A DNA stretch of 64,000 nucleotides from Lingula anatina. Taxonomy: Eukaryota > Animalia > Brachiopoda. The number at the start of each line of letters is the position of its first letter. Position 1 is the first letter of the stretch. Below are positions 10,766-27,214 of this stretch, piece by piece. A model generated the notes under the pieces. That model searched no databases. It saw only the letters and a list, made by a program, of their open reading frames with translations, and was not told the DNA's origin. The stretch covers positions 20,956,001-21,020,000 of the forward strand of contig CM120640.1 of assembly GCA_051362555.1 (NCBI GenBank). Direction: 5' to 3'. The translations under genes were made by a program, and so were the position numbers.

Positions 10766-13700
10766 ATGGAACCTGTGGATTCTAGGAATCAAGTACGTCA
10801 CAAAAGCAACAAGTCCATTCTGGTGTTGGGTCTACCAAAGGCCATTACAGAGCAAAAGATAAAAATACACTTCCAGAAAAAGGGAAATGGTGGTGGTGAT
10901 ATTACTTCAGTTATTTACCCATTCAACAATCAAACAAATGCTGCTGTTGTAACATTTGTCAAGGGTGAAGGTAAGCATTCAGAATTATTTGCCAGAGATC
11001 AAAAGGTCTTTTGTCACAAAGTAAGAAAAAAAACTTATCTTATCCCTTCCTATGTCCTATATCCCCTTTCAATGCAATTGATGTAGAAATCCAATAAATT
11101 ATTTTCTTCAAACTTATTGAAATGATTCTAAGCACTTAAATTACATTTAAGTGCTCCTAAATGCCCTACAATACATATAGATTAACTTGTTTCTTGTGTC
11201 TTAGTCCAAGGGTCAAATATGGTGACCCACTACAAAGCTTGCTGTCTAATCTGATAATAAACACTGAATAGATATCACCCAGATAGCAAACAGTGGTCGC
11301 GCCAACATTGGCCCGATGACTTTGCCTCCATCGGGCCAACGTTGGCAGTCAACGTCGGTTCGAGGTCGACGTGTCTGGCGGTGCGCTATCGGGCCACCGG
11401 TGGTCTGCCACCCTTTTGCCAACATCGCACCGACGCTGGGCAGACATTTTTATGGATAACTGGTGGTCAGCCACTGTTATGCGGACCATTTGCCAACTTC
11501 GCACCTACGTTTGGCCAACGTCATTATGAGCTATTACTATCACTGGTTGGCTACTGTTATGTTATTGGTGTTTCGTCATGATAACCCTCTCACTTAAGTG
11601 AAAAACTCATGTATGCCTAAAATATGAATGACAATGTGAATCATGTTTTGTGAAGAAACATCTTTATAAATCTAAATGAGTTATCTACAGAAACATCTTT
11701 ATAAATCTAAATTAGTTATCTGTATATTATTAATGTCTATTTATTCTTTCCTAGAATTAATTAACACTAGAGCACGATGGTTAACTCAGTATAATAATTA
11801 AGCCAATTAAGATTTACGTCACTTATCAGTTATCAATATTGGTTATTCCGGGTGAGTTTCGAGAATTAAAAAGTTTATAATCCAAATCGCTCTAATGCGA
11901 CTAACTCCGATTCTCTTTTAGGCACTGAGTTCCAACTATCGGAATGATCCATGATATTTGTGGAATGTTTCTCAAAAGCAATTAAAACTGTAAACGTAAT
12001 TCTGACATTGCTATCAGTTATCACATCGTTAACCGGTTGTTTCCGTATTGCCGGCACATTGGCGACAGTGAATAAAATCTGCTGCTACACTTGATCCATG
12101 AACGATTCCCATCTGAGGAGACAAGGGTATTTGTGCTGTGTCTGGGCTTCTTCTCTCTCTGTAAAGAGAATAGAAATAATTAGAAAAACTTAAACTTAGA
12201 GGGATAATAACTCTTTGTATGAGATCTATATTTCACAATAAAAACTTTGTGAATAACTCATAGAAATATAATATATTCTGTTTTACCACAAAAATGGCAG
12301 TTATAGCTATTATTCTGATATCTGAGCTTGTCTTTAGACCACGTGACCTCCATTGATGGCTATACTCAGCTGTTAAAATCATTTAAGAAAAACCAAACTT
12401 TTTAGAAAAAAAAAAGGGACTAACTTTGAATGTAAACATGGATTGTTATTCTTACCTCCAAAGGGTCGGAGATGTATGAAGGTGCAGGTCCATGTATAGC
12501 GTTGTAAACCTCAAGTGCAAGCATACGTAGACTGTTCAAGTACAGAGTGCTGAGGCTTGACATATTTAAAAGCTCGTCGTAACTGCTTGTGTGGTTGTCG
12601 TAGACAAATCTTAGACCCCTTTCCTGTATCTTTTCTAATTTTTTCATATTTCCCTCACCACAAAAGTGCCATTCTAACAGACAATAATTAAAGTTTGATA
12701 ATGTAAAGTGCCTGAAAATGGCAAGACGACTTGGGACAGAGACAAGGCAATGAGAGTCCCCTCCCATGCCAAGCCTGTTGAACCCTTACGAAAAAGTCCT
12801 ATAGGATCCTATAAGATCCTATAGGATTCTATAGGAAATTGGCCCAAAATCTTATAGGATCCTATAGGACTTTTTCGTTAGGAAATGAACATTGGCAGAG
12901 AGGTTGGCAACCTCCTTAGCACTAAATCCCCTCAGGCTGGTCTGGTACTTCAGCTGTGAAATAAAAAAAGATCACAGTACTCATTTTGATGGACATTTTA
13001 TGGGCATCATAAATTTTAAAAATCATAACCCAACATCGCACTGACGTCAGCTCAAGTGTGCCACGTAGCGCGTCATCTACATGCATGCACCTATGGTCAC
13101 TGTATATCATAACTTTAACCTGTCTTAGACTCATGTCTCTCAATAAATTTACATTTAAGTTAAAGTTTGTTCGATATAGCATCTCATTGAGCGTATGCAG
13201 CTGGTACTGGTATTGTATATAATTTTCCTGCATTCCAGCTATTAGGCCCTAATATCGACGGTGTACTCCAAAGTACAAACAAAAATACTAGAGAGTGCCC
13301 TAATTCATTCTTATAAAATGTTATACATGAATTTTGGAGTTAAAATGGCATTCAATGCAGCTATGATAAACAAATTATAGACAGGTTTGTTTGTTTTCTT
13401 TAAATTATATACAAAAAATAAATCTCTATCCATAGTTCGAAATTTATAAACACTTTAAAGTAAATGCTTACCTAACAATCTTAGTGAAAGTTTAGAAAAT
13501 TCAAATTGATGTTAACTTCACTGAAACAGCTCTATGGCTGCTTGCTGGAGGTGACCTAGATTTGAAATTTGCTGCTTAGTGCAAATCAAGCACAGCTGGT
13601 GAGCCACCGTTATACCGAACGTCGGGCCAATGGCGTGAAGCAGTCGTTGGCTCGACGTCAGGCCGCCAGTAGTGGCCCGACAATGACTGCCGACCGCAAC

Positions 13701-25700: not shown

Positions 25701-27214
25701 CGTCTTGGGCTAATTTCTCACATAGAGAGAAAAGTTTGACACTGAAAATATTTTCCAATCGGATCATAGCTGAAAACAAGTATACTACACTACAATTGTA
25801 CAATTTTGAATGCTCATTTTACCATTACCCAAGTAAATATATTCATGAAGTTTGCATGTGTACATGTCCACAGTTATACTTGAATTAAAAGACCAATGAG
25901 GGTGTTAGTCAAATGTCTCTTTGCTGTTTAGGGACTCCAATTTAAAGATGAACAAACAAGATTGCCTTTACCACCTATGGCATTTTGAATTCCTCCATGA
26001 ATAAACATATCAAATTCTCACATAGTTTCCAAATTGACAGAACAAATTGTACTTATACTTAATCTCTATAATTTTATTGTCTCATCCACCCGAAAGATTG
26101 ACTCAGGTTATCGCGAACTACCTGCCCAAATGACACAAAAAGTCATCGACAACTGCAATATGCTCGCTTCCTGTACGTGAGGTAGCGTGATCCGAACGCA
26201 CATGGTTTCGCGAAGAGCTCACATTAAGCCGATTATCCTTTGATCTTGCTGCGCGTTTCACGTCCTTCTCTCATTAGGTCCATGGATCATATAATAATGT
26301 TGTTGTATGAACTCTGCAGATGAGATCAGTAGTTCAACAGTCAAGGTAAAAAGTAACATTCAACACAAATCCTTGTCCTACCGTTTGGCCTATCAGGGGG
26401 CATCTGTGTTTTGAACAACAAACTTTATCTAATGAATAACTTTATTTTACAGATCTCCCGTATACAAAACCCAGCATTGTTCCAAAAATTCATGGCTAAG
26501 GAAAAGAGTATGAAAGAGAATTCTCACCAGGGCAGAATTATAGAAAGCACTTTGTGGCATGGGACAAGAGAAGAGAATAAAAAATATATCAGCATATGTG
26601 GTCTTGGTCCTTATTACCATTCCCACAGAGGACCTCTTGGTAATTAACAAATAAAGTCCGTTTCTCTCAATATTAATACAAGAAAGTTGTCTTTTCTCCA
26701 GTATAATTATTTATTTATTTTTGTTAATTTTCATCTTCCAAGGGATAGTATTAAAATTTTTATCTACTGGTAGTTATGTTAAGAACGGGGTATGGTACTG
26801 ATTACTACAACCTTGGACCCATCATACATATGTATAATGGGTCCTAGCTACAATAAACTGTTGACAGCAACATAGTCAATTTTCACAATGAAAAGCTTAA
26901 TCTACACCGCTAGTATTTTCTTTTGGATTTTCCTTTTTTTTATTTCAGGAAATGGTGTTTATTTCTCAGTCAGTGCAGAGCAGTGCAGTCAAGTATGTCG
27001 GGCTCCATTTCCTTCAGGCAAGAAGCACATGATAAAATGCCGTGTGCTGACAGGAGCGTACACGCAAGGTCGTGCTTGGACAAGGTCTCCACTAGTTAGT
27101 TCAGGTTCAGGGGGCACATTTGATTCAGTTGTTGACAGCGTTTCAAATCCATCTGTGTTTGTGATCTTCTCTGCGATCCAAATATATCCAGAATACTGGA
27201 TAACATTCACTTAA
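10766..27214 (+). CDS. DTX3L-like E3 ubiquitin ligase fused to a macrodomain and a C-terminal PARP-family domain (RRM-KH-like-Macro-RING-DTC-PARP), copy 1, ~1088 aa
   Basis: Coding exons 10766-10970, 14362-14432, 18305-19652, 20073-20758, 20924-21141, 22536-22633, 23011-23198, 26453-26639, 26949-27214; all GT-AG, phases match, total 3267 nt. Motifs: [16 protein letters not shown]; macro [137 protein letters not shown]. Confidence 0.85.
12420..12735 (-). mobile_element. Non-LTR retrotransposon (CR1/L2-like) ORF2 C-terminal fragment
   Basis: [47 protein letters not shown] is typical post-RT LINE sequence; truncated. Confidence 0.75.
12784..12882. mobile_element. Palindromic MITE with TCCTATAGGA subrepeats
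   Basis: About 34-bp near-perfect inverted repeat CCTTACGAAAAAGTCCTATAGGATCCTATAAGAT at both ends. Confidence 0.7.
14680..16232 (+). mobile_element. Degenerate Crypton-like element (DUF3504-type N-terminal remnant)
   Basis: 15598-15741 reads [45 protein letters not shown], resembling the RF...EEL...SKNT...WA..W...RN pattern upstream of Crypton recombinases; several stops; absent from copy 2. Ends approximate. Confidence 0.5.
19993..20043. repeat. (TA)n microsatellite
   Basis: Read directly. Confidence 0.95.
21158..22090. mobile_element. Non-autonomous TIR DNA transposon (0.93 kb) specific to copy 1
   Basis: Termini CAGGGGCGTAAC / GTTACGCCCATG, flanked by duplicated GATTA; empty site AAGATTACATGAC in copy 2 near 48366. 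Confidence 0.8.
22937..22991. repeat. (CA)n microsatellite just upstream of the first PARP exon acceptor
   Basis: Read directly; much shorter in copy 2 (49250-49259). Confidence 0.95.
23690..24350 (-). mobile_element. Non-LTR retrotransposon RT C-terminal fragment, frameshifted
   Basis: [66 protein letters not shown], split over two ORFs. Confidence 0.85.
24448..26284. mobile_element. Non-autonomous P-element-like DNA transposon (1.84 kb)
   Basis: About 33-bp TIR CATGGACCTAAT(A/G)AGAGAAGGAC(A/G)TGAAA; CAT...ATG termini; 7-bp TSD GATCATA on both sides; internal direct repeats (25110-25510; 24982-25110 vs 25820-25950). Confidence 0.8.

Follow-up and report, generated by a model that had tools for sequence, protein, structure and literature searches.

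The stretch analyzed here, a 64,000-nucleotide window of Lingula anatina (assembly GCA_051362555.1, contig CM120640.1, positions 20,956,001 to 21,020,000 of the forward strand), holds two copies of a DTX3L-type Deltex gene in which the ligase continues beyond its DTC domain into an ADP-ribosyltransferase (ART) domain. Copy 1 (10766-27214, + strand) has nine exons, GT-AG boundaries at every intron and a sole, terminal stop codon, and encodes 1088 aa. Copy 2 (36983-51647, + strand) has the same nine-exon layout and an open frame of 1035 aa, with 80% amino-acid identity to copy 1. In both copies the domain order is RRM, three KH-like modules, macrodomain, RING, DTC and ART; Pfam, run on single exons, returned PARP14-type RRM, Macro, RING and DTC matches and weak PARP matches (Table 1). 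The copies sit in a tandem duplication (about 8-32 kb versus 33-57 kb) which is young, the introns of the duplicated blocks being ~84% alike.

Table 1. Exons of copy 1, the intron at the fusion point, and a putative site in the upstream gap
Feature	Coordinates	Strand	Description
Exon 1	10766-10970	+	Start codon, then the beginning of the RRM (PARP14/NID type); Pfam PF23085 E 4e-7; start identical to RefSeq P0001
Exon 2 (71 nt)	14362-14432	+	Remainder of the RRM; 96% match to P0001 residues 69-93
Exon 3	18305-19652	+	Three KH-like alpha/beta modules, disordered linker, most of the macrodomain; Pfam Macro E 3e-21
Exon 4	20073-20758	+	End of the macrodomain (F544), low-complexity linker, C3HC4 RING, start of the DTC; Pfam RING E 8e-10, DTC E 5e-7
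Exon 5	20924-21141	+	DTC core with W828 and catalytic H832; Pfam DTC E 9e-32
Exon 6	22536-22633	+	End of the DTC (F844, catalytic E858), then open extension to a phase-1 donor
Fusion intron (377 nt)	22634-23010	+	GT-AG; CA repeat near the acceptor
Exon 7	23011-23198	+	Linker and start of the ART
Exon 8	26453-26639	+	ART; H974-G975 kept, D-loop Arg replaced by P991; Pfam PARP E 2e-4, under the curated cut-off
Exon 9	26949-27214	+	End of the ART and stop; Y1005 kept, C1013, V1070; PDB PARP15 E 2.5e-14
NF-kB-like site beside a CRE (cAMP response element) palindrome	10171-10192	.	In the ~650-bp gap; repeated at 35389-35410; putative

Structure and expression of the fusion gene

The junction is built as a sequence-only reading of this DNA had described it, with a phase-1 donor after 22633, a 377-nt intron, a phase-1 acceptor at 23011 and exons of 98, 188 and 266 nt; the middle ART exon differs between the copies, at 187 nt (copy 1) and 193 nt (copy 2). 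That reading also pointed to preservation of the junction in both paralogs, which is true but weak evidence on its own: the duplication that holds the copies is young, and their shared exon structure is not independent support. Reading through the intron from exon 6 would meet a stop after three codons. The frame itself is more informative. The 2219 non-coding bases that align between the copies hold 35 indels that break the frame; at that rate ~10 would be expected in the ART exons, where no net frameshift is observed (P about 4e-5). In the nucleotide alignment exon 8 has two 1-nt gaps that compensate each other.

Transcription was assessed with RNA reads from four runs of the same species, aligned to copy 2 at 85% likeness. 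The copy-2 joint between DTC and ART exons, 48952|49276, is spliced GT..AG in 51 reads (16+2+16+17, all four runs), the shorter side reaching as much as 74 nt, which bears out the transcript check proposed earlier, and the preceding DTC-internal splice (exon 5-6) has 31 reads. In three runs the two bins lying fully within the copy-2 fusion intron have depth 0; in the remaining run their depth is 0.35-1.9, with the flanking exon bins at ~8. Transcripts ending inside the 377-bp intron, the outcome that would have undone the fusion, are not what we see: the copy-2 intron is spliced out, and neither AATAAA nor ATTAAA occurs in the copy-1 fusion intron (22634-23010). Elsewhere in the gene, 14 and 10 reads have loose ends at the exon-7 end that match exon-8 starts, eight reads link exons 3 and 4, and the exon 4-5 splice was found on copy 1 directly (19 reads, three of four runs). 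Read alignment to copy 1 was swamped by intronic repeats; the 15 joints displayed, out of 64, do not include 22633|23011, and the CA repeat beside the acceptor was skipped. Most reads are 85-99% alike, and their base is that of copy 1 at 21 of 27 exon sites; these sites are 27 of the 40 rows displayed, beyond which there are 191 more. The reads therefore support the gene family and not one copy, with a lean to copy 1; they come from other individuals or paralogs. The DTC exon is spliced to the ART exons in a real transcript, and the fusion is real.

The best database match of the gene is a Lingula anatina RefSeq protein, P0001 (XP_013403375), with the same DTC-linker-ART end, and a second RefSeq model of the species, P0187 (XP_013392819), carries the same DTC-ART junction. 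Their 78-85% identity marks them as other alleles or paralogs. P0001 (LOC106168751) joins two tandem units in a single model of 1918 aa, the first unit being without its last DTC exon and ART, and P0187 begins within the intron preceding exon 6; both look mis-modelled.

Domains of the predicted protein

The N-terminal RRM and KH-like region found in DTX3L-type Deltex ligases is present, the RRM by Pfam (E 4e-7) and the KH part by predicted fold and our own profile. In an AlphaFold2 (AF2) model of this region, with a predicted local distance difference test (pLDDT) value of 75.8, KH domains are the structural match of the first module (best Z 9.1, root-mean-square deviation (rmsd) 2.1, 67 residues aligned), and a custom profile of the KH region scored copy 1 at E 1e-4 and copy 2 at 4e-7, with none of the reversed controls matching. 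Pfam KH had no match on exon 3, and direct BLASTP of modules 2-3 against bird DTX3L gave none. The KH-like identity is a prediction from that fold and home-made profile, and is less sure for modules 2-3.

The copy-1 macrodomain keeps all hydrolase motifs (GD, NAAN, glycine loop, HAVGP and GIF; D420, N431-A-A-N434, G440-G442, H493, F544), and its best PDB matches are macrodomain 1 of PARP14 and of PARP9, both of them hydrolases (PMC10499325). In copy 2 the third loop Gly is Arg and NAAN reads NATN. The loop Arg falls at or beside PARP14 G832 (structural numbering), a position where mutation blocks the macrodomain site (PMC10499325), and its sequence suggests that the copy-2 macrodomain is probably blocked. 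Between the copies, the ratio of nonsynonymous to synonymous substitution rates (dN/dS) comes to 0.19 in the macrodomain, 0.30 in the DTC, 0.62 in the ART (p 0.07) and 0.7-1.2 in RRM/KH. A quick 32-row tree puts the macrodomain with those of invertebrate Macro-Deltex proteins, apart from the PARP14 and PARP9 macrodomains; each group has a Shimodaira-Hasegawa-like approximate likelihood ratio test (SH-aLRT) value of 91, under the tree's mark for well-supported nodes. The nearest macrodomain and the nearest DTC are those of Lingula P0127. The earlier suggestion that the macrodomain is a fused-in part of PARP9 does not survive this grouping, nor the wide occurrence of the architecture (see below).

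The RING is followed directly by the DTC across exons 4-6 (Pfam), as in Deltex proteins, and the DTC of the close relative P0001 matches that of DTX3L with E 1e-53. Through the alignment of P0001 to DTX2 and DTX3L, the catalytic His/Glu pair is assigned in copy 1 to H832/E858 and is intact; its two residues are 26 apart, the spacing of H582/E608 in DTX2 (catalytic pair, PMC7615817) and of H707/E733 in DTX3L. The DTC is not the C-terminal domain, since ~225 residues including the ART follow it; among other DTC proteins, 316 of 340 end no more than 20 residues past the DTC.

The ART fold is confidently predicted. For an AF2 model of P0187, an 85%-alike relative (pLDDT 79.6), Foldseek matches PARP15 with a template modelling (TM) score of 0.89 by target and rmsd 2.0, so the structure prediction called for earlier gave the anticipated fold; identity to PARP14/PARP15 is about 30-36%. 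The nicotinamide site of active ARTs consists of two Tyr, a Ser and a Gly (PMC9189837). In all four known copies of the fusion (copies 1 and 2, P0001 and P0187) the Ser (Tyr+8) is Cys (C1013 in copy 1), the D-loop Arg (His+17) is Pro (P991 in copy 1) and another residue stands in place of the stacking Tyr; three of the copies have no aromatic close by, and P0001 has a Trp one residue on. None of the four retains the nicotinamide site and D-loop Arg of an active mono-ADP-ribosyltransferase. We take R1699 of PARP14 to be the His+17 Arg from its spacing and an isoform offset. The R1699A mutant of PARP14 is inactive (PMC10499325), and in PARP15 R576 (H559+17) is required for activity, which H559Y abolishes (PMC12572374). 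The triad is H-Y-V in copy 1 (H974, Y1005, V1070), P0001 and P0187, and Y-Y-V in copy 2, where the His to Tyr change is the one made in PARP15 H559Y and yields the triad of PARP13 (PMC9189837). With nicotinamide Ser, stacking Tyr and D-loop Arg gone from 4/4 copies, the ART domain is likely a pseudo-enzyme, convergent with that of PARP9. The sequence-only reading had one chain joining the DTC to a PARP14/15-type ART; the spliced transcript upholds the joining, while the eroded pocket qualifies what was joined.

Residues in place of the pocket are Cys/His in 4/4 copies (a His in the D-loop and a Cys at each of Tyr+8 and Tyr+12; 26453-27214 and 50898-51647), and we speculate that they might form a metal site. 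A PARP15-type ART-ART dimer was considered and set aside, both salt-bridge residues being replaced. A complex prediction for the P0001 RING-DTC with the P0187 ART, run without supplied alignments, gave no verdict (score 0.01). No WWE domain was detected before the ART.

Distribution, origin and neighborhood

Proteins combining a DTC with an ART appear confined to this genus in the searches made. Among 449 fetched proteins 344 have a DTC, of which 90 have a macrodomain and two an ART, both from Lingula (P0001 and P0187). Eleven DTC proteins with tails longer than 60 aa were checked, and only the two Lingula tails are ARTs. A query for DTC plus ART found both domains in 1/67 long proteins (P0001 itself); a HMMER scan over the full set of 1.84 billion representatives found both in one of the best 150 of 5686 matches, and a search of shorter proteins found both in one of 120 listed out of 232 (P0187 each time). 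Top HMMER matches with several stretches were tandem DTC or tandem PARP proteins and were discarded. These searches covered top lists with one representative per cluster (P0001 itself being unlisted in the HMMER scan) and used a PARP14-like profile, which would miss divergent ARTs; among their top-listed matches no DTC-then-ART protein lies outside Lingula. Full-text literature searches, subscription papers being outside their scope, returned no paper in which a Deltex carries an ART at its C-terminus, and the available portions of PMC10450202 and PMC8166818 do not mention such a protein. The earlier statement that no such Deltex was known stands within that range; the sequences sit in RefSeq/UniProt under automatic names.

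The earlier guess that Macro-RING-DTC proteins may exist in other animals proved right: proteins with macrodomain and DTC include sponge, coral, mollusc, annelid, echinoderm, amphioxus and Ciona entries. Macrodomain-bearing non-vertebrate DTX3L has already been noted in a preprint (bioRxiv 10.64898/2026.04.23.720386, section 5), which holds that DTX3L lost its macrodomain when PARP9 emerged. Since the macrodomain groups with Macro-Deltex and such DTX3L proteins are already in that preprint, the Macro-RING-DTC part is not new and the ART is the sole new element. The fusion is a lineage-restricted DTX3L variant, seen in one genus.

Domain-wise trees, also proposed at the outset, cover the macrodomain and the ART. 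Next to the macrodomain result above, the four fusion ARTs form one clade (100/100) in a 38-row tree, on a stem of 1.56 compared with 1.86 for PARP9, and this clade sits among PARP14-like rows, its group not being settled by the tree. We infer that the three ART exons were captured from a PARP14-like gene through a phase-1 intron, likely in the Lingula lineage.

Upstream, a gene on the - strand (1-10121) has at least eight PARP14-type RRM exons (8 of 11 open reading frames (ORFs) scanned match PF23085), and its 3' end lies outside the window. It stands head-to-head with the fusion gene, ~650 bp apart, and its duplicate at about 31.8-35.4 kb looks truncated. The kB pattern has five matches within the window; the NF-kB-like site of Table 1, kept in both copies, is weak evidence because such retention is expected at 90% identity. 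A GH85 endo-beta-N-acetylglucosaminidase exon (Pfam E 5e-14) lies at 54-60 kb (-) with a duplicate at 28-31.7 kb, a flanking block which belongs to the tandem duplication. Within copy-1 introns, ORF fragments at 23680-24530 and 12423-12785 (-) have no Pfam match and resemble the ends of LINE (long interspersed nuclear element) reverse transcriptases. The 23.6-26.4 kb part of copy 1 has no counterpart in copy 2.

Proposed function and comparison with known systems

Starting from the established exon chain, DTC-ART splice, domain identities, DTC pair and eroded pocket, the activities and immune role below are inferred. We consider it fairly probable that the gene is an ancestral-type DTX3L with a captured, dead ART: an ADP-ribose-directed ligase with its own reader/eraser, a pseudo-ART scaffold or regulator, and a separate active writer. 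The RRM/KH end would bind nucleic acid or partner proteins, and the macrodomain would bind mono-ADP-ribose and, in copy 1, probably also remove it. That mono-ADP-ribose would be written by a separate active PARP14-like enzyme, of which Lingula has one (P0181). The RING-DTC would then put ubiquitin on ADP-ribose or on nucleic-acid hydroxyls, while the folded pseudo-ART would act as a non-catalytic scaffold or regulator, as PARP9's may in the vertebrate complex. The outcome would be a one-chain counterpart of DTX3L-PARP9 reached by convergence, by analogy probably with a role in innate immunity. The gene is probably not a self-contained writer. The sequence-only reading had proposed a self-contained ADP-ribose-ubiquitin module. 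We do not support this, since such a module would depend on a working writer and each of the four known copies has an eroded ART pocket.

Several observations weigh against this proposal. The position of DTX3L Y719 is Phe in both copies (F844 in copy 1). Copy 1, P0001 and P0187 keep the triad His, the Gly and the first Tyr, so residual activity is possible, and the ART dN/dS, not significantly below 1, also fits slow decay. The reads are not assignable to a single copy, no single read spans the gene, and joints 1-2, 2-3 and 8-9 are not among the rows displayed. The long ART stem has no firm place in the tree; the immune role draws on analogy and one weak promoter motif.

The retained residues invite the view that the copy-1 ART keeps its mono-ADP-ribosyltransferase activity in a remodelled pocket, one chain writing ADP-ribose, ubiquitylating it and erasing it. 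The H-Y-V triad and pocket Gly are kept in 3/4 copies, the fold is confident, some molluscan PARP14-like rows also have Val at the third triad position, and PARP14 itself combines writer and eraser (PMC10499325). Set against these are the loss of Ser, second Tyr and D-loop Arg from 4/4 copies, the loss of the Asp of the PARP15 dimer pair, the long stem in the tree and the lost His of copy 2, and we regard activity as unlikely. It is similarly doubtful that copy 1 is the first animal one-chain writer, ubiquitylator and eraser, with a Cys/His-rebuilt ART pocket, and copy 2 its disarmed partner or decoy.

Equally improbable in our estimate is that the ART tail is a tolerated passenger of exon shuffling, translated merely to keep the frame open and with no function of its own. 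Its dN/dS of 0.62 (not significantly below 1), its occurrence solely in Lingula among the proteins searched and the usual ending of DTC proteins soon after the DTC would all suit a passenger. Yet the ART frame stays open despite that ratio, with no frameshift or stop in four diverged copies where ~10 were expected for one pair, although a stop within the final exon would presumably cost little, and the core of the fold is kept. A last account, that separate Deltex and PARP neighbors are joined by rare read-through or gene prediction alone, can appeal to the RefSeq model that does fuse two adjacent units, to the few fusion-intron reads of one run and to exon-7 depth above exon-6 depth in two runs, but is largely refuted and very improbable given junction reads comparable in number to those of the preceding DTC-internal splice, a DTC exon without a stop before the donor and an intron without a poly(A) signal.

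Two sets of database entries show other combinations of these domains. In the voles Microtus oregoni (P0163, XP_041529414) and Alexandromys fortis (P0146, XP_049978351), a PARP14 chassis ends in a DTC and not an ART, with RRM-KH-Macro and KH-WWE then RING-DTC in P0163 and RRM-KH-Macro then DTC in P0146. These models are the reverse swap and may be chimeric gene models. A 1360-aa protein of the bacterium Endozoicomonas atrinae (P0154, WP_419832183) has three macrodomain stretches and a C-terminal DTC, with no RING match; its cluster has three members, the longest contig being 748 kb, and transfer from an animal host is possible.

The dead-ART ligase proposed here can be set beside several known systems. 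With the macrodomain-bearing non-vertebrate DTX3L proteins it shares the RRM-KH-Macro-RING-DTC chassis, but all others examined are without an ART after the DTC. With the ART of PARP14/PARP15 it shares the fold, whereas the Lingula pocket Ser, stacking Tyr and D-loop Arg are replaced and the domain is joined to a ligase; the copy-2 triad is that of the PARP13 pseudo-ART. A writer-plus-ligase chain has precedent, because Dictyostelium DDB0232928 is in print as a U-box-Macro-PARP chain (PMC2964712), with an E3-type domain, a macrodomain and a clade-3 ART on one chain; it differs in its N-terminal U-box, and the available portion of that source lists no RING-DTC.

The closest comparison is with the vertebrate DTX3L-PARP9 heterodimer (PMC11251020), which has the same RRM, KH-like region, hydrolase-type macrodomain, RING-DTC and degenerate ART. 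The vertebrate PARP9-DTX3L locus is also head-to-head (PMC11251020), as is the Lingula gene with its neighbor bearing PARP14-type domains, a resemblance that offers weak context. The Lingula protein differs in being one chain with one macrodomain where vertebrates have two chains and two macrodomains; its ART follows the DTC and is not grouped with PARP9 in the tree, and its macrodomain comes from invertebrate Macro-Deltex. Nor does it look like a PARP9 orthologue, which would have two macrodomains, a Q-Y-T-type ART and a place in the PARP9 clade; it has one macrodomain, an H/Y-Y-V triad and a position outside that clade. It would be a natural one-chain DTX3L-PARP9 module, apparently of independent origin, in which an ancestral macro-Deltex took an ART that then decayed, as PARP9's did, suggesting that a dead ART beside a Deltex ligase is useful in itself. 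The Lingula gene would let the role of an inactive ART such as PARP9's be probed within one protein, for which the two copies, with macrodomain intact versus probably blocked and ART His versus Tyr, provide a natural pair.

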